A stretch of DNA of 60,551 nt from Patescibacteria group bacterium (GTDB lineage: Bacteria > Patescibacteriota > JAHJAL01). A program made the translations under genes and the position numbers. The DNA is taken from assembly GCA_041648895.1 (NCBI GenBank), contig JBAZOB010000003.1:1-60551 (forward strand), written 5' to 3'. Positions 655 through 42,490 of this stretch are shown piece after piece. The notes below the pieces were generated by a model. That model was given only the letters and a program-made list of their open reading frames with translations. It had not been told where the DNA came from and did not search any database. How positions within the stretch are numbered: the stretch's first letter is position 1; every line of letters starts with the position of its first letter.

Positions 655-981
655 TTATTTCTTTGGTTTTTTCGTGCTAACGTCGATGATTTTTTCTTCA
701 GTTTGGGGTGGTTGATAATATTTTTTCAAGACCGATTCGGGGGTAAGTTTAACAATAAGATATGCACAGCCGGTCAAGACGGCGGCATCATCGATACTTC
801 CTAAAACTGGGATATAGTCGGTGATAAAATCAAAAGGTAATATTAGATAAAGGATAAAGGCGGTGATGGGTAGAAGTTTGGCTAGCCAAGGTACCTCTTT
901 GTCAAAGAGTAATTTAATGGGTAGGGCTAGGCTTTCAAAAAATTGGATGAATTGTGGTTTGACGGGTGGGTGGGAATTCAT
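655..981 (-). CDS. DUF1232 (YkvA-like) small membrane protein
   Basis: Motif LILPFDFITDYIPVLGSIDDAAVL is typical of DUF1232. Hydrophobic helices are present. The stop abuts the upstream gene. Confidence 0.7.
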   Translation of the reverse strand: MNSHPPVKPQFIQFFESLALPIKLLFDKEVPWLAKLLPITAFILYLILPFDFITDYIPVLGSIDDAAVLTGCAYLIVKLTPESVLKKYYQPPQTEEKIIDVSTKKPKK

Positions 982-3761
982 TATTGGACGGTTAGATTGA
1001 TACTTTTTTGTTTGGAATTACCAGCGTTATCAAAAGCGATGACTACAATGTTATAGTTGCCACTACCGGGGTAGGTCCAGGTGGTGGAAAATATATTGTT
1101 GGTGTGCGAACTGACCGTTGAGTAGGGAGTGGAATTAATTTTGTATTCAACCCGGTTGATACCGGTTTGATCGTCGGTGGCGGTGGCTTGGATAATATAG
1201 GGGAAATTGCTGGAACCGAGAGTGCCACCATTGGTGGGCGAATTTATGGTTAAGCTGGGGGCGCTAGTATCGGGTGTATTGGAAATGTTGATATCGACTG
1301 AATCGGAGGCGGATAGATCAAAGTTATCAATTAAATTGACGGCAAGGTGATGTTGGCCGGAATTGACGGAAGAAACATCGTATATCAACGAATATGGTTC
1401 CAAAGAGGTTTGGCCAATGGATGTGCCATCAAAATAGAATTCAATGGTTTTGACCCCGCCCGGGGCGTTGACGGTGGTGCTAATGTTTAGAATGCTATTG
1501 ATGGTCGAATTTTCCCCGGGGTAGGTGATGTTGATACTCGGTTTAATGGCGTCAAGAGTACATTTTTCGGTGGGTGGGGGGGAAGAAAGATTGGCACCGG
1601 CGGCCCAACCTTGGACTGGTTTTTCCCAGTTAGGGTCGTCGGGCATTTCGGAATGAATGACGCGGTAAACTTTTTCTTCGGTTAAATTGGCCGGAATACT
1701 ATCGTCGGCTAGTAAACCGTTGGATTTGCAGACGCGATAAATAGTCACGTCGCTGGAATATTCAGTTGGCTGGTGCCAGGAGGCGCCGAGGTCAGTATTG
1801 GTTGGTGAACCGGTGACCGGCTTCTGATTGGAGTATTTATCGACGCTGATACTAACGATGCCGTCGGGTTTATCAAATTGTTCAATCGGGGTATTGTCGA
1901 GAAGGTAATGCATGTATTCATTCCAGATGGGAGCGGCAATGTAGACGCCGGTTTCCCCGTACATGGAGGTATTGTCATTATTACCTGTCCAGACGCCGGT
2001 TACTACCGATGGGGTGTATCCCAATGTCCAACCATCTCGAAATTCATCGGTGGTACCGGTTTTGGCAGCTACCGGACGGTCACCAAGTTGCAGGGGACTA
2101 GTGGAGCCAAAAGTGGGGGTGCGGGCGACATTGTCGGATAAAACGTTGGTGATTAGATAGGCAACTGGTTCGGGAAATATTTCTTTTTGATTTTGATTCT
2201 TTTGTTCTTCCGTCCATTCCTCCAGAATATTGTTATTGGCATCGGTGATTTTTAAAATGCTAGAAACCGGATTATATTTACCTTTATTGGCGAGGGTAGC
2301 GTAGGCGTTGGTTAGTTCAAGTAATTTGACTTCACCGCCACCCAATACTAGAGATAATCCATAGCGGTCCGGGTCGTTCAAGGATTCGATACCCATGTCG
2401 TTGGCTATTTTGATAGTTTTTTCCAGACTGACCAAAGCCAGCATTTTGACGGCGGGGATATTGAGGGAGTTTTGCAGGGCGGTGCGGATGGTGACTGGTC
2501 CACGAGTGGCTTTGTCATAGTTATCGGGGGCGTAACCGCCACCAAAATCGGTTTTTAAGTCATAGAGAGTACTGCCGGGAAACCATTTATCCATAAAGCC
2601 AATCGCGTAAACAAATGGTTTAAATGATGATCCGGGCTGACGTTTGGCAGTGGCCACGTTGACGTTACCGTCGTTGTCGGTATCCCAGTAGTTTCGGGAG
2701 CCGACCATTACTAATATTTGGCCGGTTTTGGGGTCAATGGAAACGAGGGCGGCATTGTTGGCGTTGAAGTTAATCGCGTTGGCGTCGGCATGGCGGGTGA
2801 GAATTTCCTGTGCTTTGTTTTGTTTATCTAAGTCGAGGGTGGTAATAATGGTTAAACCGCTTTCTTCGATTTCCTTTTGGGTATATTTTTGTTCCAGCTG
2901 TTCCAGGACATAGAAGACAAAATGTGGGGCCTGAATATTTTCCTGGCGACGTTTGAATTGAATTTGTTCGCTTAGGGCTTCGTCGAGCTGTTGTTGATCA
3001 ATATAGCCGAGCTCGTGCATCTGTCCCAGAATCCAGTGGTGACGCTGTGATAGTTCGTCGGTGTGATTACCGTAGGGCGAATAGTATGATGGGGCTTGAA
3101 TAATGGCGGCCAAAACCGCGCCTTCAGCGATGGTCAAATCTTGGACATTCTTGTCGAAATATATTTCGCTGGCCGCTTGGACACCGTAGGCGGTACTACC
3201 AAAAGGAATTTCGTTGAGGTATATCTGCAATATTTCTTCTTTGGAGAGGCGCTGTTCGATTTCGATGGATAGGATTAGCTCTTTGATTTTGCGGGTATAT
3301 GTCTTTTCACTGGTTAGCATGGTGTTTTTTACTAGTTGTTGGGTAATGGTGCTGGCACCCTCACCATAGATATCGCGGTTGAGTAGATTATTGAGGACAG
3401 CGCCCAGGAAACGGCGGGGATTAAAACCAATATGTTGGTAAAAATCGCGATCTTCGGTTGTGATCATGGCATCTTTGAGATGCTTGGGCATATCGTCGAT
3501 GGATACTAGAGTCCGTTGGATGTCACCGTGAACTTCATAGAGCAACTTTTCATTACGGTCGTATATTTTGGTAGATTGAGCTATTTGTCTTTCCTGCAGC
3601 TTGGAGGGATCGGGGAGTTCTGATGATAAACTATAAAAAAGAATGGAGGTGGCTAAAATGGTCAGAGAAAACAGAAATAAGGCAATTTGCCACACCCATT
3701 TGAAGACGCTTGATACAATCATATATTTTTTATTCATATGGTTAATATTATCAATTTTCAT
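981..3761 (-). CDS. Class A penicillin-binding protein (PBP1A-type transglycosylase/transpeptidase) with C-terminal Ig-like repeats
   Basis: N-terminal TM anchor. GT51 motifs EDRDFYQHIGF and GASTITQQL. Transpeptidase motifs SSFKP (SxxK), SLN (SxN) and KTGTT (KTG). About 250 aa of repeated beta-rich C-terminal domains. Confidence 0.9.
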   Translation of the reverse strand: MKIDNINHMNKKYMIVSSVFKWVWQIALFLFSLTILATSILFYSLSSELPDPSKLQERQIAQSTKIYDRNEKLLYEVHGDIQRTLVSIDDMPKHLKDAMITTEDRDFYQHIGFNPRRFLGAVLNNLLNRDIYGEGASTITQQLVKNTMLTSEKTYTRKIKELILSIEIEQRLSKEEILQIYLNEIPFGSTAYGVQAASEIYFDKNVQDLTIAEGAVLAAIIQAPSYYSPYGNHTDELSQRHHWILGQMHELGYIDQQQLDEALSEQIQFKRRQENIQAPHFVFYVLEQLEQKYTQKEIEESGLTIITTLDLDKQNKAQEILTRHADANAINFNANNAALVSIDPKTGQILVMVGSRNYWDTDNDGNVNVATAKRQPGSSFKPFVYAIGFMDKWFPGSTLYDLKTDFGGGYAPDNYDKATRGPVTIRTALQNSLNIPAVKMLALVSLEKTIKIANDMGIESLNDPDRYGLSLVLGGGEVKLLELTNAYATLANKGKYNPVSSILKITDANNNILEEWTEEQKNQNQKEIFPEPVAYLITNVLSDNVARTPTFGSTSPLQLGDRPVAAKTGTTDEFRDGWTLGYTPSVVTGVWTGNNDNTSMYGETGVYIAAPIWNEYMHYLLDNTPIEQFDKPDGIVSISVDKYSNQKPVTGSPTNTDLGASWHQPTEYSSDVTIYRVCKSNGLLADDSIPANLTEEKVYRVIHSEMPDDPNWEKPVQGWAAGANLSSPPPTEKCTLDAIKPSINITYPGENSTINSILNISTTVNAPGGVKTIEFYFDGTSIGQTSLEPYSLIYDVSSVNSGQHHLAVNLIDNFDLSASDSVDINISNTPDTSAPSLTINSPTNGGTLGSSNFPYIIQATATDDQTGINRVEYKINSTPYSTVSSHTNNIFSTTWTYPGSGNYNIVVIAFDNAGNSKQKSINLTVQ

Positions 3762-3796: not shown

Positions 3797-3979
3797 AATT
3801 ACAAATTACAAATGACTAATTGCATTAGCCATATATCATTTATTTTAATTATTGGCAGCAAATGTATTGCCGGTGGTGTTAATGTGGATCTGTCTAATAA
3901 TGGTAAGTTTTATGGCTAGCCATATAATTAAAATAAATGATATATGGCTAATGCAATTAGTCATTTGTAATTTGTAATT
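3797..3979. repeat. Nested palindromic element, copy A (conserved core 3830..3946 inside a copy-specific perfect outer stem)
   Basis: The outer arms aattacaaattacaaatgactaattgcattagc / gctaatgcaattagtcatttgtaatttgtaatt are perfect complements. The core is near-identical to those at 5263..5380 and 57907..58023. Confidence 0.85.
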
Positions 3980-3996
3980 TGTCATTAATTATTTTT

Positions 3997-5217
3997 ATGA
4001 AAAAAATATTAGAATTAAAAAAATGGGTGGGGGAGCGGGCGGAACAAATTATTGGTTGGGATGAACTGGAAAAAAAGATTAAAGCTGGTCAGAAAATAAA
4101 GATTAAATATGGCGCTGATCCCAGCAAACCGGATTTGCATTTGGGACACGCGGTGGAGCTGCGAGTCATGCGTAAATTTCAAGATCTCTTGGACGCCGAG
4201 GTCCAGTTTTTGATTGGTGATTTCACGGGCCGGATTGGCGATCCGAGTGGCAAGTCCAAGGCGAGGCAAGTTTTGGATCAAACCGAAGTGAAAGCCAATG
4301 CTTTGTCCTACGCAGCGGCGGTGTTTAGGATTTTGGATTCAGACAAAACGTCAATCTGGGCCAATGGTACCAAATTGCCTTTTGTGAAAGATTGCCAGGG
4401 AGGCTGGTGGGATGAGATGAAATTGAATGATTTTTTGTCCTTGTTGACATTGGTGACTCACGCTAAATTGATTGATCGGGATATGTTTCAGGAGCGGATC
4501 AAAAATGGACAAGAAATTTACATGCATGAAATGATGTATCCCATTTTGCAAGGCTATGATTCAGTCATGATGGAATCTGATTTGACAATTGTGGGGACGG
4601 ATCAATTGTTTAACGAATTGATGGGCCGATTTTTCCAGGAAAAATTTGATCAAATTCCGCAAGCCATTATTACGGTGCCGTTACTGTTGGGGACGGATGG
4701 GCATGAAAAAATGAGTAAGTCACTGGGAAATTATATTGGTTTAGAAGATAAACCGAGCCAGATGTATGGCAAGGCGATGTCAATTCCGGATGAGTTGATA
4801 GTTGGTTGGGCCAAATTGGCGACTGATCTGGATTATAAATTGTTAGCCAAAGAGTTGGATCAGGGTTCAAACCCGCGTGATATTAAAGCGCGGGTGGCTT
4901 CCGATATTGTGCGACTATATTATAATGAAGACGAGGCGGAAATAGCAGCGACGGAGTTTAATCGGGTTTTTTCACGAAACGAAGAACCGGAAGAGATGTT
5001 GGAAATTAAGTTTTTGTCTGGTCAATCGATCAATTTGCTTGATTGTTTAACTGATCATAAATTGGTGGCATCGAAAACTGATGGGCGGCGGATGATTGAG
5101 CAGGGGGCGGTGAAAATTGATGGCGACAAAATCCTGGATGTGAATTATTCATTTGTTCCAGTCGATAAGAGTGTGCTGCGGGTGGGGAAAAGGCGTTGGG
5201 CGAGGTTTGTTTTATAA
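3997..5217 (+). CDS. tyrS: Tyrosyl-tRNA synthetase
   Basis: HIGH-type motif DLHLGHAV, KMSKS present, GTDQ motif, C-terminal S4-like domain (DGRRMIEQGAVKIDG). The ORF-track start 3979 is TTG and lies inside the palindrome, so the first ATG at 3997 is preferred. Confidence 0.85.
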   Translation: MKKILELKKWVGERAEQIIGWDELEKKIKAGQKIKIKYGADPSKPDLHLGHAVELRVMRKFQDLLDAEVQFLIGDFTGRIGDPSGKSKARQVLDQTEVKANALSYAAAVFRILDSDKTSIWANGTKLPFVKDCQGGWWDEMKLNDFLSLLTLVTHAKLIDRDMFQERIKNGQEIYMHEMMYPILQGYDSVMMESDLTIVGTDQLFNELMGRFFQEKFDQIPQAIITVPLLLGTDGHEKMSKSLGNYIGLEDKPSQMYGKAMSIPDELIVGWAKLATDLDYKLLAKELDQGSNPRDIKARVASDIVRLYYNEDEAEIAATEFNRVFSRNEEPEEMLEIKFLSGQSINLLDCLTDHKLVASKTDGRRMIEQGAVKIDGDKILDVNYSFVPVDKSVLRVGKRRWARFVL

Positions 5218-5432
5218 TTACGAATGAAAAATTACAAATTACAAATAATGAATTGCATTGGTCATATATCATTTATTTTAATTAATGGCAGCAAATGTTT
5301 GGCCGGGTGGTGTGAATGTGGAACTGTCTAATAATGGTAAGTTTTATGGCTAGCCATATAATTAAAATAAATGATATATGACCAATGCAATTCATTATTT
5401 GTAATTTGTAATTTTTCATTCGTAATTATAAA
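5211..5432. repeat. Nested palindromic element, copy B (core 5263..5380)
   Basis: The 52-nt outer arms (tttataattacgaatgaaaaattacaaattacaaataatgaattgcattggt and its reverse complement) are perfect. The element spans from the tyrS stop codon to 4 nt before the argS ATG. Confidence 0.85.
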
Positions 5433-5435
5433 TAT

Positions 5436-7163
5436 ATGAATTATATTTGGTCAAAATTTAGAACCGAAGTAGTTGATTATTTAAAGAAACAAGGAATAGC
5501 GGAAGACAAAATGGTGTTGGAAACGCCGCCGGCGGGGGTGCGGGGTCATTTGGCTTTTGCTTGTCATGTTTTGGCGCGGGAATATAAAAAGAATCCGGCG
5601 AACATCGCGGCCGAAATTGCTGGTAATTTTGCCAATACTAATGGTGGTTTGGTTGGTGAAGTGGTCGCGACTGGTCCTTATGTTAATTTTCTGGTTGACG
5701 GCCGGGTATTTTTGCCTTTTTTACAAACCGAATTGGATGCTGGTAAAGATATGTACGGTAGTCTACCGGCGCAGGGACAAAAAATTGGGATTGAGTTCGT
5801 GCAACCTAATACCAATAAAGCGCTGAGTATTGGCCATGCTCGCAATGCTTCTTTGGGTTGGAGCATGAGTCAGGTGTTGAAATTTGCTGGTTATGAGGTG
5901 GTGCGGATCAACTTGTTTAATGATCGAGGGGTACATATATGTAAATCAATGTTGGCCTATCAGAAATGGGGTAATAATTCGACACCAGCCGATGAGGGTT
6001 TAAAACCGGATCACTTTGTTGGTAAATATTATGCCATGTTTACCCAAAAATCAGTGGCCGACGAGTCTTTGGAAAAAGAGGCGCAGGTCATGTTGAAAAA
6101 ATGGGAAGAAGGTGATAATGAGGTGCTGGCGTTATGGAAAAAAATGACTAAATGGTTTTATGAAGGCGTGGAAGAAACTTTTCGGCGTTATGGGATAGAA
6201 TATGATCAAATCTATTATGAGTCCGATTTGTATCAACATGGTAAAGAGATTATCGAAAAGGCTCTAAAAAAGGGTTATTGCTATCGTCTGGCGGATGGAG
6301 CGATTGAGGTGGATTTGGAAGCGAAACAATTGGGTAAAAAAATTCTCCAGCGTCGGGACGGCACTTCAGTCTATATCGTGCAGGATCTGTATTTAGCCAA
6401 AAAGAAATTTGCTGATTTGCAGCTAGATTGGTCAATATATGTAGTGGCCGATGAGCAGAAATATCATTTTGATGTTTTGTTTGAGTTGTTGGATAAATTT
6501 GAGATTGTTGATCGCGAGAAGAATTACCATTTGGCTTACGGCATGGTCAATCTGAAAAGTGGTAAAATGAGTTCCCGCCGCGGTACGGTGGTTAAAATGG
6601 ATGATCTATTGGATGAGTTGCATATTTTGGCCAAAGAACAGATTGCTATTCGGGAAGCTGATTTGCCGGCGATGGAATTAGACAAGCGAGCGGAGAAAAT
6701 CGCGCAGGCAGCGATGAAATATAATCTTTTAAATCAAGATAAGAATCGAGTGATTCTGTTTAATAAAGAGGAAGCGATTAAATTTGAGGGAGATACCGGA
6801 CCTTACTTATTGTATACCTATGCCCGGGTGATGAGCATCTGGCAGAAATCTGGTTTGGATGCCTGGCCGGCGGTGGATTGGAGTCAATTTGTTGGTAGTG
6901 ATGAGTATCTGGAAATTATGACCCAGCTGGCGCGTTTTAGTACCGTCATCAAAAAAGTAGCCGAAGAATATAATCCGGCTATTTTAGCTAAATATTTGTA
7001 TACTCTGGCCCAATTGTACAACAGTTACTATCACCACCGGCGAATTTTAGATGCCAAGGATGAGATTGATCGGCAATCTGGTTTGGTTTTGTCTTTGGCG
7101 GTGGCGCAGATTTTGCGGATTGGGCTTTCTTTGATGGGAATTGAAGTAGTGGAAAAGATGTAA
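5436..7163 (+). CDS. argS: Arginyl-tRNA synthetase
   Basis: PNTNKALSIGHARN (HIGH region), MSSRRG (KMSKS equivalent), and a C-terminal DALR-type anticodon-binding region. The length of 575 aa is typical. Confidence 0.9.
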   Translation: MNYIWSKFRTEVVDYLKKQGIAEDKMVLETPPAGVRGHLAFACHVLAREYKKNPANIAAEIAGNFANTNGGLVGEVVATGPYVNFLVDGRVFLPFLQTELDAGKDMYGSLPAQGQKIGIEFVQPNTNKALSIGHARNASLGWSMSQVLKFAGYEVVRINLFNDRGVHICKSMLAYQKWGNNSTPADEGLKPDHFVGKYYAMFTQKSVADESLEKEAQVMLKKWEEGDNEVLALWKKMTKWFYEGVEETFRRYGIEYDQIYYESDLYQHGKEIIEKALKKGYCYRLADGAIEVDLEAKQLGKKILQRRDGTSVYIVQDLYLAKKKFADLQLDWSIYVVADEQKYHFDVLFELLDKFEIVDREKNYHLAYGMVNLKSGKMSSRRGTVVKMDDLLDELHILAKEQIAIREADLPAMELDKRAEKIAQAAMKYNLLNQDKNRVILFNKEEAIKFEGDTGPYLLYTYARVMSIWQKSGLDAWPAVDWSQFVGSDEYLEIMTQLARFSTVIKKVAEEYNPAILAKYLYTLAQLYNSYYHHRRILDAKDEIDRQSGLVLSLAVAQILRIGLSLMGIEVVEKM

Positions 7164-9378: not shown

Positions 9379-9469
9379 AAATAAATTATGAATTATAAAT
9401 GACAATATTGTAGGGGCGGGTTTGAAACCCGCCCCTACAATATTGTCATTTATAATTCATAATTTATTT
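9379..9469. repeat. 91-nt perfect palindrome: GC-rich hairpin tgtaggggcgggtttgaaacccgcccctaca nested in AT-rich arms
   Basis: The arms aaataaattatgaattataaatgacaatat and its complement are perfect. It overlaps the mutM stop codon and likely acts as a terminator for mutM. Confidence 0.85.
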
Positions 9470-11439: not shown

Positions 11440-11490
11440 AATTAATTACGAATTAAGAATTAAGAATATTCTTCTCTTATTTGTAATTAA

Positions 11491-11905: not shown

Positions 11906-12631
11906 CTAAAGATTATTAGTTATATTCATTAATATCAATATGAGTCGAGAGGATAATTCTTTGTTAGCATAGTCAATTTTTCTTCCATGTAAAATATCAT
12001 TTCTAAATTCACCAAACACATCTTCAATTACATCAAATAATACCTTATTATTAGTAAACTCGTTCTCCTTTTTTGAAAGATATTGAATGATATTTCTAAT
12101 AGTTGGTTTTTGTCTTTGGTTTTTCTTTGCACATTCTTTACATAATTTGGTCATACATTCATCACAAATAGCAGTATAACCTTTGATATCTTTAGGAACA
12201 CTAATGTGAATCTCAAAAAATAAGCCATCTATTTGAGTTAATAGTACAGGTATGGATAGAATAAAATTAGTATCAAAGTGAGCTTGAACAGCTTTATTTA
12301 TAATGTGTTTTCTTTTATTTTTTTGTAGTTTCTTATTGAAAAAATTTTTTATTTTGCTCGCACTATATTGTGATTCCAGTAAATTACTGATTTTGATGTC
12401 TAAAATGCCATCATATTGCTCTTCTAACTTATCTAATTCATACCCTAAGCTCACAAGCGGATCAGTAAGATTTTTTATTGCCGTGCTTACCTCCTGTTCT
12501 CTTTTCTCATAATCTTTTAGAGTTTTGGCAAGTTCAGCAAGTTCCTTAGATGGCAAAATGTCATTTAAGTTATCAAAATATGCTTTGTAATTTCTAAAAT
12601 CAATACGATTATTATCCTTTGTTTTTTTCAT
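11906..12631 (-). CDS. HEPN-like (Rx4H) domain protein, candidate RNase/abortive-infection effector
   Basis: The C-terminal helical domain has FGEFRNDILHGRKIDY (R-N-x-x-x-H-G, the HEPN signature). An upstream helix reads AVQAHFDTNFILSIPVLLTQIDGLFFE. The N-terminal half is coiled-coil. It sits directly downstream of a PIN gene. Confidence 0.5.
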   Translation of the reverse strand: MKKTKDNNRIDFRNYKAYFDNLNDILPSKELAELAKTLKDYEKREQEVSTAIKNLTDPLVSLGYELDKLEEQYDGILDIKISNLLESQYSASKIKNFFNKKLQKNKRKHIINKAVQAHFDTNFILSIPVLLTQIDGLFFEIHISVPKDIKGYTAICDECMTKLCKECAKKNQRQKPTIRNIIQYLSKKENEFTNNKVLFDVIEDVFGEFRNDILHGRKIDYANKELSSRLILILMNITNNL

Positions 12632-12640
12632 ATTATTTAA

Positions 12641-13087
12641 TTAGCCGATATTTACTTTTTTTATATATTCCCCAATGTTATAAACTTCGAGATTGAGTTC
12701 TTTTGCTTTTTTATAAAGATGATTATCTTCAGTTATTAATGGAATTTTATCTTTATAAGCAATGCTTAATAATAAGCAATCACCCGCCTTTATATATGGC
12801 AATTTGGCATTAAAATATTTACGAAAAAATTCTTGGTTAATATCCAATGCATTTAGTTTTAATGCATTCTTTTCATTTATCCCTTTGTATTCTGTGCTCC
12901 CATTATGACGTTCTTGTTTTGAGCCGCTAGAAAATTCGAATATCGAAAATAATGTCACTGTAATTGTGATATTATTTTCTATTGCATACTCACCAATTTT
13001 CTTAGCTTTAGAATGCCGACTTCTATTCTTGAAGAATATGTCTAAAAGAACACACGTATCAACGACAATATTCATAGTATTACTCAA
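12641..13087 (-). CDS. PIN-domain nuclease (VapC-like)
   Basis: Acidic residues in PIN order: IVVDTCVLLD, IFEF, AGDCLLL, ITEDNH. There is no obvious small antitoxin gene upstream. The start overlaps the lipoprotein gene stop by 8 nt. Confidence 0.7.
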   Translation of the reverse strand: MSNTMNIVVDTCVLLDIFFKNRSRHSKAKKIGEYAIENNITITVTLFSIFEFSSGSKQERHNGSTEYKGINEKNALKLNALDINQEFFRKYFNAKLPYIKAGDCLLLSIAYKDKIPLITEDNHLYKKAKELNLEVYNIGEYIKKVNIG

Positions 13088-13607
13088 GTTCCCAAATCAC
13101 CTGTGTCGTGTCGACGAACGATAAAGGCTCATAGATGAACTCAAATTGGTTATTTGCCATGTCTGCGGGTACCTCATAGGCAACATATCCTTTTGCCTTT
13201 CTAGTGGGTTGTAGGGTGCCACTATTTAAGCTTGGATCAACGTCTGTAAATGCTGTATCATAACTAGCCCCATCTTTATCAACTAATTTGAAATTTAGCA
13301 TATTGTAGCTTGTTGAATCAGAAGAAACGTTTTCTATTTCTACCATGATAGCAAGATATGTGTGTCCATCTTTAGCTTTCATAAAATCATTACTAGATAC
13401 ATAGTCTTTGACCTCCGTGAGAGCAATCTTTTGTCCGTCAACTTCTACAACATCATTCAATTTATAAATCACAGGCTTTTTAACTTCTTCCTGTTTGTTT
13501 TGATTTTGTTCAGTTGACACCTTTCCAGTATTTACTTCTGTAGAAGGCAAACAACCGGCTAGTAACAAAATTGAAATTAGACTGGCAAATAAAATTGACT
13601 TTTTCAT
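13080..13607 (-). CDS. DUF4352-like lipoprotein
   Basis: Lipobox LLAGC after MKKSILFASLISI. The pattern DGHTYLAIMVEIENVS...KGYVAYEVP is typical of DUF4352. The start was moved to ATG 13607, which has GGAGA upstream. Confidence 0.6.
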   Translation of the reverse strand: MKKSILFASLISILLLAGCLPSTEVNTGKVSTEQNQNKQEEVKKPVIYKLNDVVEVDGQKIALTEVKDYVSSNDFMKAKDGHTYLAIMVEIENVSSDSTSYNMLNFKLVDKDGASYDTAFTDVDPSLNSGTLQPTRKAKGYVAYEVPADMANNQFEFIYEPLSFVDTTQVIWELE

Positions 13608-13624
13608 TTTTTTTCTCCAATAAA

Positions 13625-13906
13625 TTAAATACCATTTTCTTTTAAACATTTATAATACTGATCATTGAAATAATCGTTCATGCAGTCTTCAATTTCCGAA
13701 TCACTTTTTATTTCAGGTTTTTTCCATTCTGTTTGCATATAATCTAGTGGACTATTGTCACATTTAGTGTAACTATTTACTAACTCTTCGGCTCTCTGGC
13801 TACAGAATTTTTTGGTTTGGGATGGTCTGTACGCAAACCAATAGAAGGATAATCCGAAAATTATCAACAAAACCAAAGATAAAAATACTATATTATATTT
13901 CTTCAT
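13625..13906 (-). CDS. Small membrane-anchored hypothetical protein
   Basis: N-terminal TM helix (IVFLSLVLLIIFGLSFYWF) and a Cys-containing ectodomain. The start is likely MKKYN at 13906. Confidence 0.4.
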   Translation of the reverse strand: MKKYNIVFLSLVLLIIFGLSFYWFAYRPSQTKKFCSQRAEELVNSYTKCDNSPLDYMQTEWKKPEIKSDSEIEDCMNDYFNDQYYKCLKENGI

Positions 13907-13914
13907 AATGAATA

Positions 13915-14610
13915 TTAGCCACAAATATTCTCACATGGTACACCATCATTGTCTTGGTCCTTGTCACCACAACCAACATCATTGAGATACCAATATGCTT
14001 CCTGACAACTGATCATTTCATCACATCGCTTATCACAAGTCATGCTGGTAAATTCTTGTTTTGGTACTTTGAAAGCCGGTCCTTCATACGTCCAATTACT
14101 ATCCGTATTTTTTACTTTATTCATCTCATTTTCATCTGCCGTATAGAAATGATGAAGAAATACAGGGCTCCAAAAACGATAAACTGTCTCAGTTTCGACC
14201 GGACCACTATAGCTCAGAGGATATACATAGTATGCAATCCATTCATATTTCCAGTTTGAATCCGTGTCTTTGACTTTTACATATTCGTTATAATCAGAAG
14301 TGTAAAAATGACCATGAAATACATCTGACCAAAAACGATACAAGGGTTCAGTCCCCTCAACCTGGGTTTTATACGCGCTGAAAGCAACTTTCTCGTAGGT
14401 CCAGTTTGAATCGGTATTCTTGACTTTGGTCGCCTCATCAAAATCAATAGTGAAGAAATGACCATGAAATACATCGGACCAATAACGATATACATAATCA
14501 GCCTCTGTAGTCTCCTCCTGCGGTAAATTTGATGTCACCGCATAGGTGATACCACCTCCAACCAGACTAACCAGCAGAAGGGCAAACAGAATTGTTTTTA
14601 GTTTTTTCAT
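13915..14610 (-). CDS. Secreted protein with three DUF5648-type repeats and a C-terminal Excalibur calcium-binding domain
   Basis: Signal peptide. The repeat YRFWS[DP]VF.[GH]HF[YF]T.D..E...VK.TDSNW.YE occurs 3 times. The C-terminal GCGDKDQDNDGVPCE matches the Excalibur DxDxDGxxCE motif. Confidence 0.65.
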   Translation of the reverse strand: MKKLKTILFALLLVSLVGGGITYAVTSNLPQEETTEADYVYRYWSDVFHGHFFTIDFDEATKVKNTDSNWTYEKVAFSAYKTQVEGTEPLYRFWSDVFHGHFYTSDYNEYVKVKDTDSNWKYEWIAYYVYPLSYSGPVETETVYRFWSPVFLHHFYTADENEMNKVKNTDSNWTYEGPAFKVPKQEFTSMTCDKRCDEMISCQEAYWYLNDVGCGDKDQDNDGVPCENICG

Positions 14611-14849
14611 AATTCCTCTTATTAATAAAATTAAATAAAGTATATATTAATCAGATTAAGAATTTATTAAGACTATACAAAAATGGTCCTCCGACCAGAC
14701 GACAATCCCTTTCGAGATTGCCCCAAACTCTTTCGAGTGAGGACCTACGTGAATAAGTGTCGGTCATGAGGACCGTCTTCATTCACGTAGGTTTTAAAAA
14801 CCATACTTCAGTAAATTGAAGGTTAGGTTATTTGTCTAATATAATCGTA

Positions 14850-15302
14850 TTATACTTTGTTCTCGGCGGCAATTTTTGCTTGTCTTTCTTTTTCTTTAGC
14901 TTCAGCTACATGAGGACCAACAAACTGCGATCTTTCCATACCGAAGTGAACTATAATTCTTTCGTCATTAGCCATTTCTGGATTCTCTTTCCATCCGTAT
15001 CTATTCTTAAAATTAAAGCCCCATACCTTGGCATTAAAACCCTTTAACTTGCCCATCATGCCGTTAATACCCGCTTGCTCCCAAAATAATCTACATTGTC
15101 GCTTAGCCTTTGCTATTCTATCGGCCGGAAAATCATTTGGATATTTCTTCATATACGACTCAATTGTCTTATAGCTACAATCAGGAAAACATTCCTTTGA
15201 TAATCCTCCAGCTAGATGAGCACAATATTTTGAACAAAGCCCCTTGCGGGCCTTACTGGTTTTGTATTTAAGGGCGAATTGGTTATTCTGGTTATTAGTC
15301 AT
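14850..15302 (-). CDS. Phage terminase small subunit-like DNA-binding protein
   Basis: The pattern ...LAGGLSKECF...YKTIESYMKKYPNDF...FWEQAGINGMMGKLKGFNAKVWGFNFKNRYGWKE matches my recollection of the HTH plus FN..W.FN.KNR.GW signature of phage TerS proteins. Confidence 0.5.
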   Translation of the reverse strand: MTNNQNNQFALKYKTSKARKGLCSKYCAHLAGGLSKECFPDCSYKTIESYMKKYPNDFPADRIAKAKRQCRLFWEQAGINGMMGKLKGFNAKVWGFNFKNRYGWKENPEMANDERIIVHFGMERSQFVGPHVAEAKEKERQAKIAAENKV

Positions 15303-15309
15303 TTAAGTA

Positions 15310-15798
15310 TCATCTATCACAATGTTGTACTTTTCCTCTGTATACTTCTTTAATCTTGTCTTCGTACTGATTTGGAATAGTATACAAAGGAGAATATTTG
15401 CCAATATTCATGATCGCACCCGTCTGGTCTTTGTTGCTTTCTATGTGACGGTTTACTACATTCTCAACACAGATATACGGCTCATTTTCGAAAAAAATCC
15501 AATCTACTTCGATTTCATTATTAAAGGCATTTTGAATATTTGTCACCGCTTCCTGACGAGCTTCTTCACGACAAAAATCAATATCAAGAATTGCGCAATC
15601 TTTTCCCTCCTCTAATTGTTTCATTAGAGAGCTATAATGCTGACTCATGTTAAATGCGCTATCGTCATTTACAGCACCAGCCTTATAGTCATCAAATACA
15701 GAATAGCCCTGACTTGATAGTTCATTGACTATACTCGTTTTGCCTGAGCCAGGCAGACCTACAATAAACAAAATTTTTCTATCCATTGTTAACTCCAT
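15310..15798 (-). CDS. P-loop NTPase/kinase-like protein
   Basis: Walker A GLPGSGKT near the N-terminus. Small size (162 aa). The start overlaps the stop of the upstream gene. Confidence 0.55.
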   Translation of the reverse strand: MELTMDRKILFIVGLPGSGKTSIVNELSSQGYSVFDDYKAGAVNDDSAFNMSQHYSSLMKQLEEGKDCAILDIDFCREEARQEAVTNIQNAFNNEIEVDWIFFENEPYICVENVVNRHIESNKDQTGAIMNIGKYSPLYTIPNQYEDKIKEVYRGKVQHCDR

Positions 15799-16421
15799 TA
15801 ATTAATAATGAAACTAATATCGAAAAATGATATTACAATTAGTAATAACCCTATAATAAACAACCACGTGCATACGTCTGATACTTTTTGGAAAAAAATA
15901 CTTTCTTTAACTTCCAGAAGTTTTGTTTCAAGTTCTGCAAATTCATAGATCATGTATCTTCTTGTTTCCTCAGTAACTTCGGGCAATATTTTACGCTCTT
16001 TATTTTTTAGTAATAAATCAGTCTCCTTTTTTGATGACATTTTTATAAACTCTAATTTATCGCTAAGGCCATTATTTTCGGCTGAAATAATTTTATTAAG
16101 ATAAACTATACTAAGAATCATCTGGGTTAGCAGTAAAATCATGCCAATAAAAGTGATCTTTCTCATTGCAAAAATATCAGGGTACTGACTTACTAATGGC
16201 ACAATTGGGGCTAGAATTAATAATGAAAGTGTATCTAAATGAATTTGGTATTTTCTAATCCAATCTATATTTTTTATTGATAAATTTCTAACGACTTCAA
16301 TGCTGGTGTTTTTCCTGTTTATTGAATCCTTGACATTGTTAAGATAGTACTGATTAAACTGATTAATTTCTTGTTGTTTTGATCTATCATCTGTGTTTTC
16401 TGGTGAATTATTATTCTCCAT
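15798..16421 (-). CDS. Hypothetical membrane protein (3 predicted TM helices)
   Basis: Hydrophobic segments LSLLILAPIVPLV, ITFIGMILLLTQMILSIVYL and WLFIIGLLLIVISFF. No family was recognised. Confidence 0.4.
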   Translation of the reverse strand: MENNNSPENTDDRSKQQEINQFNQYYLNNVKDSINRKNTSIEVVRNLSIKNIDWIRKYQIHLDTLSLLILAPIVPLVSQYPDIFAMRKITFIGMILLLTQMILSIVYLNKIISAENNGLSDKLEFIKMSSKKETDLLLKNKERKILPEVTEETRRYMIYEFAELETKLLEVKESIFFQKVSDVCTWLFIIGLLLIVISFFDISFIIN

Positions 16422-16463
16422 ATTTTGTTATTAGTATAATTAAATCATAATCTAAAAAATAAA

Positions 16464-18134
16464 ATGCTCGAAAACATAAAAACCAGCGAGGACCTTGCGA
16501 ATCTATACAGAAAGATCAAAGAGATTGAGGAAATCGATATCACCAAGCTCCGTTTCGTCATGTATACCCGCAAATCTACCAAAGATGAAAAGCGACAAGC
16601 CAAATCTATACCCGATCAGATAACAGAATGCAAACAAACTGCTGAACGTCTCAATCTTAACATAACTGCTATTGTTAAGGAAAAAGAATCAGCCAAGGAA
16701 CCAAATATTCGGCCCAAATTTCGTCAAATGCTGAATGATATAAAAGCTGGGAAATATGATGCCGTGTTGGCGTGGCATCCAGATCGTCTCTCTCGCAACA
16801 TGATGGAGGCTGGAGAGATCATAGATATGCTGGATAAAAACCTTATCAAGAGCCTCAAATTTGCTAGTTTTGAATATACCAATGATGCTTCCGGTAAGAT
16901 GCTACTTGGTATAGCCTTTGTACTTTCAAAACAATATACAGACAAATTAAGTAAAGACGTGAGCAGAGGAATAAAACGAGGTATTGAGAGAGGCCAATAC
17001 TTGAACAAAGGAAAACATGGATATTACAAGGATATAAATCAATATTTACGACCGGAAGAGGTCCATTTTAACCTCTTGCAAAAAGCATGGTATTTGAGAG
17101 TAGAAGGCAATTCTCTCGATTATATTGCCAACTATATGAACGAGCACAACTACCAAAGACGATACAAAGGTACTCACAAATTAAAGAAATTCAAATTTGA
17201 TAAAAGACGACTATCTGAGCTATTTCGAGATCCTTTTTATTGCGGGGTATTAGTTTATGGTAAAGATACAGTTTGTAATCTAGGCGAGGTTTTGGATGAC
17301 TTTGTGCCGATGATAGACGTTTCTGTCTTTCTTAAAATAAATAAACTCAAAGGCGAAAAAGAGCTTTTTGCTCTAGCTAGAAAACATCGTGAAGATGTGC
17401 TAGCGGACCTGATGAGAGGAAAAATTATTTGTGGTCATTGCAATGAGCCCTACACTTCAGGAATCACTGTCAAATACAAAAAGGATAAAAAGGGAAAAGT
17501 AATATCCACGGAGCACAGATATTATTATCGTTGCGAAACTGTAAAATGCAAGATGAGAAACGAGTCTATACCACCAAGAACATATTTGGAGTTTGCCCAC
17601 GATCTATTTAGTGACAATTTGACATTAATCGAAAATAAAAAGGCATTTGATATATACGTTAAGCATGCAAAGAAAGCCATTAAATACAAGGTTAGAGAAT
17701 TGACTGATACTAGATATGGCTTATATAAAGAAGAAGCTCTGTTGAAGGAAAAAATTGAAGAAACAAAGAGGATAATCGTTGATCATAGGGATGATAAAAT
17801 TTTAGTTGAAGAATTTACCGAAGATCTAAAGAAACAAAAAGAAGAGCTTAAAACAGTATCAGATACGATCCAAAATATCACTGACGTATTAAAAGATACT
17901 GAAAAACTGATTTATTCCTATCCAGAGTTTCTCGAACTAATTGCGAAAATACCGTCTAGGATTAAAAAGACTAAAAATATGGCCGCACTCGACAAACTAA
18001 TGAAAAATATCTTCTCGAACTTTGTCATTAAAAATCGAAAAGTTGCTTCCTATGAACTAAAAGAACCCTTCAAACAAATTATGAAAGGTGCTCTTGACTC
18101 AAAAGTCCTAAAAAGTCGGGGATACCGGACTTGA
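16464..18134 (+). CDS. Large serine recombinase (integrase)
   Basis: Resolvase-type N-domain (MYTRKSTKDE with catalytic Ser, WHPDRLSRN), recombinase domain, Zn-ribbon CGHC...YYYRCETVKC, and a coiled-coil C-terminus. The last 19 nt overlap tRNA-Pro on the opposite strand. Confidence 0.85.
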   Translation: MLENIKTSEDLANLYRKIKEIEEIDITKLRFVMYTRKSTKDEKRQAKSIPDQITECKQTAERLNLNITAIVKEKESAKEPNIRPKFRQMLNDIKAGKYDAVLAWHPDRLSRNMMEAGEIIDMLDKNLIKSLKFASFEYTNDASGKMLLGIAFVLSKQYTDKLSKDVSRGIKRGIERGQYLNKGKHGYYKDINQYLRPEEVHFNLLQKAWYLRVEGNSLDYIANYMNEHNYQRRYKGTHKLKKFKFDKRRLSELFRDPFYCGVLVYGKDTVCNLGEVLDDFVPMIDVSVFLKINKLKGEKELFALARKHREDVLADLMRGKIICGHCNEPYTSGITVKYKKDKKGKVISTEHRYYYRCETVKCKMRNESIPPRTYLEFAHDLFSDNLTLIENKKAFDIYVKHAKKAIKYKVRELTDTRYGLYKEEALLKEKIEETKRIIVDHRDDKILVEEFTEDLKKQKEELKTVSDTIQNITDVLKDTEKLIYSYPEFLELIAKIPSRIKKTKNMAALDKLMKNIFSNFVIKNRKVASYELKEPFKQIMKGALDSKVLKSRGYRT

Positions 18135-18189
18135 ACCGGTGACCTCATGCACCCCATGCATGCGCGCTAGCCAACTGCGCTAATCCCCG
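18116..18189 (-). tRNA. tRNA-Pro (anticodon GGG)
   Basis: Hand-folded cloverleaf: CGGGGAT/ATCCCCG acceptor, GCGC D-stem, CATGC-ATGGGGT-GCATG anticodon arm, ACCGG-TTCAAGT-CCGGT T-arm. Length 74 nt. Confidence 0.85.
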
Positions 18190-18225: not shown

Positions 18226-18368
18226 TTGGATGTTGATAAATTTTCAATTTTAAATTTCTAATTTTCAATGATTGAGTCGCTTCGCGACAATATTATATAT
18301 ATCCGTCGCCTTGGCGACACCTCCATTGAAAATTAGAAATTTAAAATTGAAAATATATCAACATCCAA
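18226..18368. repeat. 143-nt palindrome: 45-nt AT-rich arms enclosing two GC-rich mini-hairpins
   Basis: The arm ttggatgttgataaattttcaattttaaatttctaattttcaatg pairs with its complement with one mismatch. The loop contains gtcgcttcgcgac and gtcgccttggcgac. It lies just downstream of the M50 gene on the minus strand. Confidence 0.8.
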
Positions 18369-21166: not shown

Positions 21167-21176
21167 TTGACTATTT

Positions 21177-21240
21177 AATAATGAATAATGAATAATTGAT
21201 AATGAATAATTGATAATTTTATTATTCATTATTCATTATT
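21177..21240. repeat. AT-rich hairpin (20-bp perfect stem) downstream of the PSP1 gene; terminator-like
   Basis: aataatgaataatgaataat pairs with attattcattattcattatt. Confidence 0.6.
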
Positions 21241-21263
21241 AATTATTAATTATTAATTTTAAT

Positions 21264-21920
21264 ATGGTTGAATTATTAATAATATTGGTAATTACGGTAG
21301 TTTTGGTTTATGTAATTTGGCGTTTTACGCGGCCAAAGTCGGCTTCATATGGTATTGAAGTGGTGGCGGGAAAATCAAAAAAGAAAAATTATGATGAAAT
21401 ATCTGATCAGGGTGAATCTTTGGAAGAAGATAGTATTAATAAAGAACAACCAGTGGACAGCCGGATGATGGAGGAGAGTGAGGGCGATGGTCAGGCAGTG
21501 ATTGGTAAATTAAAATCTTCAACCGAGAAGGAGTGTATTGAATTAATTTATCAGAATCCAAAAGATATCAATGCTTATTTACGTCTTTGTGTTTATTATT
21601 TACAGCGACAGAAATGGAATGATGCTAAGGAGGTGTTGATGGAAGCTTTGAAGGTTGATCCGGATAATGATAAACTTTACAATAACCTGGGTATTGTTTG
21701 GTATCGGCTAAAAAGATATAATAATGCAGTTACGGCTTTTGAGAAAGCTATCAAATACAATGATAAAATTGCTCATCGATTTATGAATTTAGGGCTCTCT
21801 TTGGCGGCGTTGGGTGAAAATGAAAAAGCGTCGGAATGTTTTTCAAAAGCCATATCTTTAGATCCGGAAGCTAAGGTTTATCAGGATTTATTGTCGGAAG
21901 CGAAGAGTCTATTGGTTTAA
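21264..21920 (+). CDS. TM-anchored TPR repeat protein
   Basis: N-terminal TM helix. The C-terminal half has TPR-like repeats (W..A...L..AL..DP.N...Y.NLG). Confidence 0.65.
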   Translation: MVELLIILVITVVLVYVIWRFTRPKSASYGIEVVAGKSKKKNYDEISDQGESLEEDSINKEQPVDSRMMEESEGDGQAVIGKLKSSTEKECIELIYQNPKDINAYLRLCVYYLQRQKWNDAKEVLMEALKVDPDNDKLYNNLGIVWYRLKRYNNAVTAFEKAIKYNDKIAHRFMNLGLSLAALGENEKASECFSKAISLDPEAKVYQDLLSEAKSLLV

Positions 21921-22008: not shown

Positions 22009-22072
22009 AAGGAACAAGGATCAAGATTCAAGTACTAAATACTTGAGAGTTGATCCTTGATACTTGATCCTT
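22009..22072. repeat. GATCAAG-word imperfect palindrome
   Basis: aaggaacaaggatcaagattcaagtact...acttgagagttgatccttgatacttgatcctt, lying between two tRNAs. Confidence 0.6.
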
Positions 22073-22253: not shown

Positions 22254-22304
22254 AAGTACCAAGGATCAAGTTTCAAGTTTCAAGTGGCTTGATCCTTGGT
22301 ACTT
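22254..22304. repeat. GATCAAG-word hairpin (17-bp stem) followed by a T-run
   Basis: aagtaccaaggatcaag pairs with cttgatccttggtactt, followed by gttttt. Confidence 0.7.
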
Positions 22305-22310
22305 GTTTTT

Positions 22311-32737: not shown

Positions 32738-32797
32738 ATAGAATAATTTTTGATTAAATATAAAAACGTTTGTCGGATTTGGCAGACGTTTTTTGTT

Positions 32798-32871
32798 ACG
32801 CGTTACGTTTATTTTGAAAAAATACATTTGGTTTAAACGCGTAGAGACGTTGCATGCAACGTCTCTACGCG
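32798..32871. repeat. REP-like unit R1 (74 bp) containing the 28-nt perfect palindrome gtagagacgttgcatgcaacgtctctac
   Basis: Identical to 33632..33705 in direct orientation. It lies just 3' of the RAYT-like gene. Confidence 0.85.
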
Positions 32872-32927
32872 GGCAATTTTCCGTTATTGTTTGATATTTA
32901 TTGATGGCGTTTAAAAAAACGTAATAA

Positions 32928-33527: not shown

Positions 33528-33631
33528 TTCATAAATTGATTATTTTATTTTAAGTTATCAATTACGAAATGATGGAAAAATAAATGATTGGTTATTTTTT
33601 GGTTAATTTGTTGTTTATTGGCGTTTGTTTG

Positions 33632-33726
33632 ACGCGTTACGTTTATTTTGAAAAAATACATTTGGTTTAAACGCGTAGAGACGTTGCATGCAACGTCTCT
33701 ACGCGCGGCCATCGCGTTAATATTTG
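33632..33726. repeat. REP-like unit R3 (74-bp unit plus a 21-bp tail)
   Basis: The 74 bp are identical to R1. The tail cggccatcgcgttaatatttg also follows the internal copy at 33181..33202. ORF 33545..33757 is a translation of this repeat and is spurious. Confidence 0.85.
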
Positions 33727-38412: not shown

Positions 38413-38517
38413 TGTCATCCCGCACAGAAAGCGAAGCGCTTCTGATGTCGGGATCTCATCATTAAGGCGTTTATAAATGACTTGATAATGAGATCCCCGC
38501 TCAAGGCGGGGATGACA
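38413..38517. mobile_element. MITE-like element, TGTCATCCC...GGGATGACA family
   Basis: It has terminal inverted repeats, an internal left hairpin, a central hairpin atctcatca...tgataatgagat, and a right hairpin ccccgctcaaggcgggg. Confidence 0.75.
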
Positions 38518-38554
38518 GGAAAAAAATAAATATATAAACAAATAATATACAACT

Positions 38555-42484: not shown

Positions 42485-42490
42485 CCTATA

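Follow-up and report, generated by a model that had tools for sequence, protein, structure and literature searches.

REPIN hairpins, among the closest described systems, commonly carry compensatory changes (PMC3116915), and Correia elements (CREE) may give rise to promoters that face outward and to substrates of RNase III (PMC2649163). Transposition of the IS200/IS605 type uses single-stranded DNA, namely the template of the lagging strand (PMC3333891), and IS1397, ISPpu9/10 and IS621 integrate specifically inside intergenic palindromes (PMC1525189, PMC12288879). Template switching is a process that homogenises and expands the arms of inverted repeats (PMC8604942, PMC13100816, PMC8794818). The window analysed here, a stretch of 60,551 nucleotides from a Patescibacteria group bacterium, holds three copies of a palindromic element; we give about an even chance to the reading that it is a lineage-specific, non-coding, non-autonomous palindromic repeat (MITE/REPIN-like) whose arm symmetry is made at the DNA level by template switching.

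The three copies lie on the plus strand exactly where an earlier note on this DNA, made from the sequence, had placed them, and each is a palindrome with 100% complementary arms: copy 1 at 3797-3979 (183 bp; arms 3797-3852 and 3924-3979, 56 nt, spacer 71 nt), copy 2 at 5211-5432 (222 bp; arms 5211-5284 and 5359-5432, 74 nt, spacer 74 nt) and copy 3 at 57868-58062 (195 bp; arms 57868-57928 and 58002-58062, 61 nt, spacer 73 nt). The shared core of about 117 nt that the note described was recovered, with 117 nt in copies 1 (3830-3946; nhmmer E = 4e-36) and 3 (57907-58023) and 118 nt in copy 2 (5263-5380), which has one additional G in the centre. The 22-bp stem reported for it is a terminal inverted repeat (TIR), CATATATCATTTATTTTAATTA / TAATTAAAATAAATGATATATG in the three window copies (3830-3851 and 3925-3946 in copy 1, around an asymmetric centre at 3852-3924), which is perfect and the same in all 12 copies described below save for one mirrored T>C / A>G change. 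The core as a whole comprises this 22-bp AT-rich TIR, a 5-bp extension and a 63-nt asymmetric centre; the extension, claimed earlier as an extra ATGGC/GCCAT pairing, is present in copies 2 and 3 and missing from copy 1, where TTGGC gives a 23rd base pair instead. Differences among the window cores, the 1-nt indel included, are confined to the centre, as had been stated. Outside the core the perfect helices measure 33, 52 and 39 bp, within the 33-52 bp given before; in copy 1 the left arm (3797-3829) reads as heptads AATTACA, AATTACA, AATGACT and AATTGCA followed by TTAGC, pairs perfectly over 33 bp with the right arm (3947-3979) and aligns in register with the arms of other copies. A chance origin of the copies is excluded, because a 32-mer and a TIR 15-mer are confined to the window copies (shuffle expectation 0.00 and 1.23 matches, respectively) and the RNA fold of copy 1 (-91.4 kcal/mol) has a z-score of -14.

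A core 21-mer search retrieved nine further copies from one metagenome (Ga0265297), spread over eight other contigs, which brings the family to at least 12 intergenic sites on 9 contigs of one Patescibacteria-like genome. Every copy is full length (12/12 intact, 169-231 bp), degenerate copies are absent by nhmmer, and the minimal unit of ~169 bp (L007, L008) consists of the 117-nt core plus at least 26 bp of inverted heptads per side. The copies are flanked by different single-copy housekeeping genes (murC-like, gyrB, ftsK, nusA, hisS, relA, dciA, metK and others) and are spaced roughly regularly, at ~1 per 20 kb of recovered contigs. The element would have spread to these sites and is probably mobile. 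Beyond this genome, the core 21-mer had no match in viral contigs or in the contigs of species-representative genomes, the TIR 22-mer matched no viral contig and, across 185,579 species genomes, had one single-ended chance hit, no copy turned up in phages or plasmids by blastn, and nhmmer found no core at the loci of relatives. Searches of genome and viral contigs likewise returned no partner element with the same TIR, the 60-kb window encodes no transposase, and tblastn with the IS200-type Y1 protein of a relative (L010, which carries the gene for this transposase) found nothing in ~137 kb (the window plus the other loci). Neither the core nor the whole palindrome is surrounded by a visible direct target-site duplication, and inside the palindrome a duplication that is itself palindromic (TA, ATAT or AATT) would not show. 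We regard the element as non-coding because an ORF of 31 codons in the core is broken by stops or a frameshift in 3/12 copies; substitutions in this ORF are mostly non-synonymous, and a small protein or type I toxin was rejected on the same two grounds.

The earlier view that the arms are entirely different between copies does not survive the wider sample. All 12 copies align gap-free outward from the core, with 2-9 pairwise differences (mean ~5) in the first 26 nt, and their arms share a consensus of in-register heptads, (KACRAAT)n on the left and (ATTYGTM)n on the right (right arm ACYAATNNAATTNGTMATTYGTMATT), over at least 26-33 nt at ~80% identity. Variation is limited to periodic positions of the 7-nt repeat, ~2 per heptad, the heptads keep one phase with respect to the core in 12/12 copies, and only the outermost 0-24 bp are copy-specific. 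The proposed inversion of the MITE pattern, conserved inside and unrelated outside, thus gives way to a conserved unit that runs at least 26 bp past the core and is nearer to an ordinary palindromic repeat with long TIRs. Further copies with conserved outer arms, named beforehand as evidence that the element was an ordinary MITE, were found as far as the shared heptads reach, though not in the copy-specific ends.

The outer arms, 26-57 bp long, are flawless in 11/11 complete copies and then end abruptly. Across a 48-bp outer helix, 528/528 cells are Watson-Crick, with no G-U and no mismatch; among the 53 pairs examined, 14 show a change in both partners (37 cells) and none in a single partner (99.8% of cells paired), and the paired changes are mostly transversion-type pair swaps. 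Since all arm changes are two-sided and Watson-Crick, with no G-U, DNA-level copying is favoured over selection on RNA. Under such copying, intrastrand template switching would homogenise and extend the arms, an arm mutation of any kind would be converted into a mirrored pair, and the palindrome would lengthen at the expense of the local flanks, up to the point where it meets coding or promoter sequence that the cell needs. Symmetrisation is not uniform over all palindromes, because simple core-less heptad palindromes in the same genome are just 81-91% complementary. Variation in the arms does not track variation in the core (Mantel r = -0.13); this misfits simple co-inheritance of arms with core, which we rejected on this test, and requires fast heptad turnover or recombination among copies. 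Arm similarity shows no gradient with distance from the core, whereas simple co-conversion tracts should have produced one. Where core and arm meet, local 9-bp hairpins (ATGACYAAT NNA ATTNGTCAT) were also considered and set aside, the central pair being complementary in only 3/12 copies.

The claim that two copies bracket tyrS and that one abuts argS was borne out. Copy 1 lies between a divergent PBP1 gene (981-3761, minus strand) and tyrS (3997-5217), with start-codon gaps of 35 and 17 nt, and copy 2 occupies the whole spacer between tyrS and argS (5436-7163), overlapping the stop-codon end of tyrS by 7 nt and stopping 3 nt short of the argS ATG. Copy 3 sits between convergent genes with gaps of -6 and -6, so placed that the last codon and stop of both genes (AAG TAA / TTA CTT) are mirrored within the outer 6 nt of each arm; mirrored stop codons lie within the arms in both convergent cases of the family. 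The palindromes start at or within the upstream stop codon, and the stop-codon-side gaps of the 12 copies range from -19 to +19 nt and are negative in 8/12. The tyrS-argS spacer measures 218 nt here versus 3, 5 or 63 nt in relatives, which lack a palindrome at this site; the whole 222-bp palindrome is therefore extra DNA at tyrS-argS, and not a core dropped into an old palindrome. At several gene ends of the host genome, heptad arrays or palindromes directly follow the stop codon, and in relatives heptad arrays after stop codons are kept as a feature with a differing sequence flavour. The conserved right half of the core contains an invariant outward TATAAT, and the element may affect its flanking genes, either through this motif or through a long RNA hairpin at their 3' ends. 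A sigma-70 promoter in the core (TGGTAA-16-TATAAT) has a score of 9 out of 12, failed the criteria of the scan and stays a mere possibility. An intrinsic-terminator scan had no match over the element, T-richness 3' of the stem is only slightly higher on the sense side by hand count, and a T-box or other aminoacyl-tRNA synthetase leader was rejected because the same core also occurs between convergent genes and beside gyrB, ftsK, nusA, metK and others.

An alternative interpretation, which develops the earlier suggestion of a module nested in pre-existing palindromes, is that only the 117-nt core is mobile, as a small MITE that inserts site-specifically in the centre or loop of existing heptad palindromes or terminator hairpins, the arms being host DNA. 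The nested architecture itself stands, and the outermost arm segments of some copies, L005 and L004a among them, look like local hairpins or invaded terminators, being stems of non-heptad sequence with T-rich tracts behind them. Core-less heptad arrays and palindromes are common in this genome and its relatives (11441-11490, 21170-21268, 39644-39707 and 40950-41014 in the window; L005 3780-3810), one of them at the orthologous PBP-tyrS site (L012 5106-5232); another module, a GTAG-tagged GC hairpin, lies within arms of the same flavour at 9379-9469; the lack of correlation between core and arm variation would be expected; and the core ends could conceal a palindromic ATAT or TA duplication. 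We nevertheless consider this interpretation rather unlikely because no empty ATTRGTCAT...ATGACYAAT palindrome occurs outside the copies in ~137 kb of the same genome, the relatives are palindrome-free at tyrS-argS, core-bearing arms are perfect in 11/11 cases whereas core-less palindromes are not, the heptad phase is fixed relative to the core, and neither a cognate transposase nor a TIR-bearing partner was found in the contigs and loci searched.

The orientation of the copies follows replication. The core strand agrees with the sign of the local GC skew in 11/12 copies (core on the G-rich strand), and in 10/10 when the weak-skew contig L004 is left aside; the skew is replication-driven, since minus-strand chromosomal genes keep values of +0.19 to +0.28. 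We infer that the element we take to be a mobile palindromic repeat passes through a single-stranded, replication-coupled intermediate, and the lagging-strand, single-stranded DNA chemistry of REPIN-type mobilisation would fit the observed orientation bias.

A second alternative, also raised earlier as a structured RNA whose basal stem needs only to pair, is a transcribed RNA in which pairing is held by selection, the duplex being an RNase III site, a 3'-end stabiliser or a terminator and the apical region a small RNA or a platform for protein. It would account for the very strong stem covariation, the sense orientation of the element in 7/8 co-directional gene contexts and the invariant right half of the core centre, and it has a precedent in the RNase III and promoter effects of Correia elements (PMC2649163); with arms that start from stop codons, the upstream mRNA would include the 5' arm at the least. 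Covariation under RNA selection would, however, include G-U intermediates, whereas the 528 cells contain no G-U pair and no mismatch, and the swaps are mostly of the transversion type. The 63-nt centre shows no covariation (0/16 predicted pairs), for which reason a structured apical RNA domain was rejected; the Rfam check proposed for the core gave no family, nothing in Rfam 15 reaching its gathering score over the element, and at E<=10 the models recovered were plant miRNA precursors alone (33-54 bits versus cut-offs of 100-230), matches generic to long hairpins, so that a known RNA family was dismissed too. Moreover, all four copies in convergent or divergent contexts (4/4) keep to the replication strand, palindromy extends into copy-specific sequence and stop codons, and flanks counted by hand have no consistent U-tract 3' of the stem. 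We therefore disfavour this alternative and judge it unlikely.

The core is constrained. Seventeen of its 19 variable columns fall in columns 23-65 (17/19, P = 2.6e-6), the right half of the centre does not vary, 11/45 site pairs fail the four-gamete test, and 7/9 singleton substitutions lie in the variable block (P = 0.014). The scarcity of singletons in the TIR and in the right half of the centre hints at selection in place, as for a host function, and not at pure selfish turnover. A third interpretation is a host cis-acting DNA site, with inverted arrays of 7-bp protein-binding heptads around a replication-oriented core, serving chromosome organisation, fork priming or pausing, or the insulation of gene boundaries. 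The omega ribbon-helix-helix repressor of pSM19035 binds WATCACW heptads, which we take the heptads of the element to resemble. The invariance of all but ~2 positions per heptad, the intactness of 12/12 copies, their orientation locked to the replication strand and their roughly regular spacing suit such a site, as do the arrays kept after stop codons in relatives with changed flavour. Duplex binding, however, needs no exact mirror identity at degenerate positions, several heptad flavours coexist within one genome, no candidate binding protein emerged, and the core is missing from relatives, so that we find a host site quite improbable. Perfect palindromes are a known class of assembly or amplification artefact, for example through chimeric fold-back reads, but the chance of this is next to nil, given that the twelve copies are all internal to their nine contigs and have intact genes on their flanks, and that they differ in their arms and by point changes in the core yet keep a consistent orientation.

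If the preferred reading of a mobile, template-switched palindromic repeat is right, the element joins the repeat or mobile-DNA families of Patescibacteria-type genomes, of which to our knowledge few have been described; Patescibacteria are thought to be poor in mobile elements. It would also offer a natural multicopy system in which hairpin arm-to-arm copying is displayed directly, through 14 mirrored substitutions and zero intermediates, and such copying bears on the origin and persistence of perfect hairpins, terminators and microRNA-like stems. The replication-strand bias would provide a handle on single-strand-DNA mobility in a setting where no transposase is known. Elements of this kind take up entire spacers, run over stop codons and may bring promoters with them, and are therefore expected to affect gene calling and operon prediction in such genomes. 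A bolder reading, which we entertain tentatively and rather doubt, is an undescribed kind of hairpin DNA element, locked to one strand of the fork, that builds and enlarges its perfect stem itself, copying one flank into the other at insertion or continuously, and overwrites the last codons and the stop codons of its neighbours, or else, instead of a parasite, a chromosomal site with a replication-linked orientation in a streamlined CPR bacterium.

Compared with REPINs and BIMEs, the element is likewise dispersed, intergenic, non-coding, ~100-200 bp long and able to form one long hairpin in single-stranded DNA or RNA, with no visible target-site duplication, and its 14 two-sided pairs recall the compensatory changes of REPIN hairpins. 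It differs in that REPINs, which are hairpin-forming REP doublets moved by Y1 transposases of the RAYT type, have conserved ends (GTAG/CGTC-tagged REPs, short GC-rich imperfect palindromes) around a variable spacer, whereas conservation in the present element lies in the centre and inner stem and variation in the outer stem; its TIR is AT-rich and lacks a GTAG tag, no RAYT was found in ~137 kb, and copy-specific perfect extension into the flanks is not a REPIN feature. A separate family of GTAG-tagged GC hairpins is also present in the window. Foldback (FB) elements of Drosophila have long inverted arms of short tandem repeats, the number of which varies between copies; the arm design is alike, but FB elements are eukaryotic, of kilobase scale and not perfectly mirrored, and nothing indicates relatedness to the present element. 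REP-loop-targeting insertion sequences provide a precedent for the nested layout of an element in a hairpin, but they are autonomous and encode a transposase, unlike a 117-nt non-coding insert for which no empty target palindromes were found. PATE, derived from IS200/IS605, share the strand bias relative to replication (11/12 here) but have subterminal imperfect hairpins, no TIR and insertion 3' of a fixed tetra- or pentanucleotide, whereas the TIR here is long and perfect and the left flank of the core, ATTRGT / ATTAGC, is mirrored on the right. The template-switch (quasipalindrome) process explains arm identity, paired multinucleotide changes and outward growth (PMC8604942, PMC13100816, PMC8794818, PMC7202029), but it is a mutational process and not an element family, and it usually involves short repeats whereas recurrent action on 48-79-bp stems would be needed here. 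CREE/NEMIS, RUP and ERIC MITEs are similarly small, non-coding and intergenic near gene ends, with 20-26 bp TIRs around a conserved core, although a TA or other target-site duplication is not detectable here, the sequences searched gave no cognate transposase, the sequences themselves are not similar, and ordinary MITE copies lack copy-specific perfect mirror flanks. The element thus has the TIRs and the small, non-coding, multicopy and dispersed character of a MITE, the sequences searched containing no autonomous element or transposase that shares its TIR, and arms that differ from copy to copy yet mirror one another exactly argue for a novel form of small mobile palindromic DNA, symmetrised through DNA copying, and not for a new RNA gene.

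The best-supported reading of the three-copy palindrome is a non-autonomous palindromic element, the stem of which was symmetrised by DNA-level arm copying. An inverted-repeat scan recovered all three copies where the earlier note had placed them, with arms that are 100% complementary over 56 nt in copy 1 (3797-3852 / 3924-3979), 74 nt in copy 2 (5211-5284 / 5359-5432) and 61 nt in copy 3 (57868-57928 / 58002-58062), separated in each by 71-74 nt. The core, which starts with CATATATCATTTATTTTAATTA and ends with TAATTAAAATAAATGATATATG, is 117 nt long (118 in copy 2). As claimed earlier, differences among the window copies are confined to its centre and the neighbouring genes are indeed tyrS (3997-5217) and argS (5436-7163). 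A TIR 15-mer and a 32-mer from the centre matched only the three copies in the window (1.23 and 0.00 matches expected in shuffles), and the element folds 14 standard deviations below shuffled sequence; an Rfam search with it, proposed in the earlier note, returned zero matching families.

Nine more copies, none overlapping the window, were found with a 21-mer drawn from the centre's invariant part on eight contigs (L001-L008), all in metagenome Ga0265297; the same 21-mer had zero matches in viral contigs and in one genome for each of 185,579 species. The sole match of the TIR 22-mer, single-ended and in a Bacilli MAG, is attributed to chance, and phage and plasmid collections held no match to the element. 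Genes beside the nine copies, including the housekeeping genes Mur ligase, gyrB, ftsK, nusA, hisS, relA/spoT, dciA, SpoU methylase, purD and metK, are all different and single-copy, with no duplicates of window genes; therefore, all 12 copies most likely come from a single genome, at ~1 copy per 20 kb of recovered contigs. Among 5.8 billion proteins, no TyrRS relative exceeded 72% identity, and the named relatives are Patescibacteria.

Contrary to what had been supposed, arms of different copies are related: all 12 right arms share a gap-free alignment and, outward from the core, fit ACYAATNNAATTNGTMATTYGTMATT(YGTMATT). Their first 26 nt show 2-9 differences between pairs of copies, with variable positions recurring at period 7 (~2 in each heptad), and copy-specific sequence begins only past ~33 nt. 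Outer arms are further heptads in window copy 2, L001, L006 and one of the two copies on L004 (L004b), and unique sequence in L005 (GGGTTTTAAGCATTTACC) and the other L004 copy (L004a; GGTTAGATAAATAAC). Arms are shortest in L007 and L008, at exactly 26 bp, giving a minimal unit of ~169 bp. Outside the core, the arms are perfect over 26-57 bp (461 bp in total across 11 complete copies), and pairing ends abruptly beyond them, except in L001 and L008, where one or two mismatches precede several more pairs. Palindromes start at or within the neighbouring gene's stop codon (stop-side gaps of the 12 copies: -7, -6, -6, +2, +19, -6, -19, -9, -8, -8, 0, +14) and lie 3-96 nt from start codons. Where the genes converge, at window copy 3 and in L006, both genes' last codon and stop are mirrored within the arms' outer 6-8 nt, the outermost pairs of the palindrome being Lys-stop (AAG TAA, AAA TGA; window 57868-57873 / 58057-58062, L006 3782-3789 / 3989-3996). 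These arm ends and mirrored stops fit arms copied or extended outward until meeting sequence under selection.

PBP1/tyrS/argS synteny is kept in relatives (TyrRS identity 60-72%), and the core is absent from all of their syntenic loci. Their tyrS-argS spacers measure 3, 5 or 63 nt and hold no palindrome, so the 222-bp palindrome there in the window is extra DNA. Between PBP and tyrS, the relative's locus L012 has an imperfect palindrome with the heptad flavour of the window element and without the core, and the palindrome in L016 and L017 is of a different flavour; in L012 and L015, one-sided heptad arrays directly follow the stop codon of argS. Heptad arrays thus characterise the clade, and the core family is confined to this genome. 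The earlier proposal of a module inserted in the loops of pre-existing palindromes may hold for some sites, with the core alone inserting, but it is contradicted at tyrS-argS and by the lack of empty target palindromes in ~137 kb of this genome.

Heptad arrays or palindromes of AAGGATC-, AATAATG-, AAATTTT- and AATTACR-type flavours occur in several intergenic spacers in the window (11441-11490, 21170-21268, 22009-22065, 22254-22305, 39644-39707, 40950-41014 and 41581-41721) and in other loci (L005 3780-3810, L012 8251-8283, L015 3031-3067 and L016 9900-9990). Several start directly after a stop codon, as read from the sequence rather than systematically counted, and in relatives at 66-72% TyrRS identity, comparable sites carry arrays with other repeat sequences. 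We know of no description of intergenic heptad arrays of this sort; AATKACR looks similar to omega-repressor heptads (WATCACW). An ACT-domain gene that the window lacks separates tyrS from argS in several relatives (L010, L018), and one relative has two tandem tyrS paralogues (L018 10001-12404). In relative GCA_036848155.1, an IS200-type Y1 transposase with small GC hairpins on either side (L010 16399-16830) lies ~5 kb downstream of the tyrS-argS locus; searches of the window and its sister contigs found no counterpart.

In an alignment of the core plus 26 bp of arm (53 pairs), 99.8% is paired. Both-sided changes occur in 14 pairs (37 cells), with one mirrored T>C / A>G within the TIR, and there are zero one-sided changes among the 53 pairs, and therefore zero G-U pairs; alternative pairs are mainly transversion-type swaps such as UA/AU, CG/GC and GC/UA. 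Selection at the RNA level normally leaves, and tolerates, G-U intermediates. Exclusive Watson-Crick mirroring is the product expected of copying one arm from the other, and the arm pairing is DNA-like. Published work documents arm homogenisation, arm expansion and spacer inversion by template switching between inverted-repeat arms (PMC8604942, PMC13100816, PMC8794818, PMC7202029).

The asymmetric centre follows the sign of local GC skew in 11/12 copies; the single exception is on L004, where skew is weak (0.03-0.18), and agreement is 10/10 with L004 left out. The core is sense to co-directional flanking genes in 7/8 cases, and all four copies in convergent or divergent contexts are oriented with skew. 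Skew here reflects replication rather than coding strand, because minus-strand chromosomal genes of the window keep a plus-strand skew of +0.19 to +0.28; it is negative in the window only at a probable island (11.9-18.1 kb). Plus-strand genes average +0.30, skew being very strong and strand-wide in the window and L001-L008, and unusually weak on L004 (hisS-relA-...-nusA, every gene on the C-rich strand). The G-rich strand is the lagging-strand template, on which IS200/IS605-type single-strand transposition acts (PMC3333891). Both the pairing statistics and orientation speak against the earlier suggestion of a structured RNA with a stem needing only to pair, and pairing kept by RNA-level selection is disfavoured.

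Variable core columns are strongly clustered, 17/19 lying within columns 23-65 (P = 2.6e-6), as do 7/9 singleton changes (P = 0.014), so the TIRs and the centre's right half are under constraint; this half carries a 12-bp palindrome ATGGCTAGCCAT and an outward TATAAT. All four gametes occur in 11/45 informative site pairs, indicating that copies recombined or underwent conversion, or that mutations recurred. No fold in the 63-nt centre has covariation support. The core is non-coding: the 31-codon ORF seen in copy 3 is cut short by premature stops in L007 and L003, and a frameshift breaks it in copy 2. A host protein-binding, replication-oriented site is an unlikely alternative, favoured by indications that selection acts in place.

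Other repeats occur nearby. A REP-like, GTAG-tagged GC-rich hairpin, TGTAGGGGCGGGTTTnAAACCCGCCCCTACA, has three copies (9379-9469, 42941-42969 and 56252-56280), one within a perfect 45-bp palindrome whose arms have the heptad flavour found around the 117-nt core. A second nested-palindrome family (window 18226-18368, L005 3846-3982) has AATTTYM-heptad arms ending TTTTCAATG(A), paired over 44/45 and 33/33 bp, around unrelated centres of 53 and ~66-68 nt; two small GTCGC...GCGAC hairpins lie in the window copy. Low GC (0.34) and reversed GC skew mark 11906-18189, probably an integrated element, with a PIN-domain gene, a LOOT RNA (14701-14829; 72 bits) and a 556-aa large serine recombinase (16464-18134), the 3' end of which overlaps tRNA-Pro (18115-18189). 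Repeated ~100-nt blocks (38450-38547, 42477-42636, 43914-44011, 44657-44744 and 45451-45536), containing two hairpins, GGGATCTCATC...GATGAGATCCCC and CCCCGCTCAAGGCGGGG, are found upstream of various type IV pilin genes of a pilus cluster (33.8-46.6 kb); they had no Rfam match at the gathering threshold and may be leader or regulatory RNA. A 1-kb region with only doubtful ORFs (32790-33726) holds three GTAG-tagged palindromes GCGTAGAGACGTTGCATGCAACGTCTCTACGCG and an 82-nt direct repeat.

As a non-autonomous palindromic element, it would most likely propagate via a single-stranded hairpin at the fork, with one arm copied from the other at the DNA level into a symmetric stem, which such copying would probably also extend. 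Counting against this reading, no TSD is visible around the element, searches detected neither a transposase in the window nor a Y1 gene in the window or loci, and core and arm variation are uncorrelated. The element's working is most like that of REPINs and of MITEs such as Correia elements. Unlike MITEs, it has no visible TSD, and no cognate transposase was found in the window; unlike REPINs, it lacks REP ends, with no RAYT found in the DNA covered, its topology is reversed, conserved inside and variable outside, and it bears a copy-specific perfect extension.
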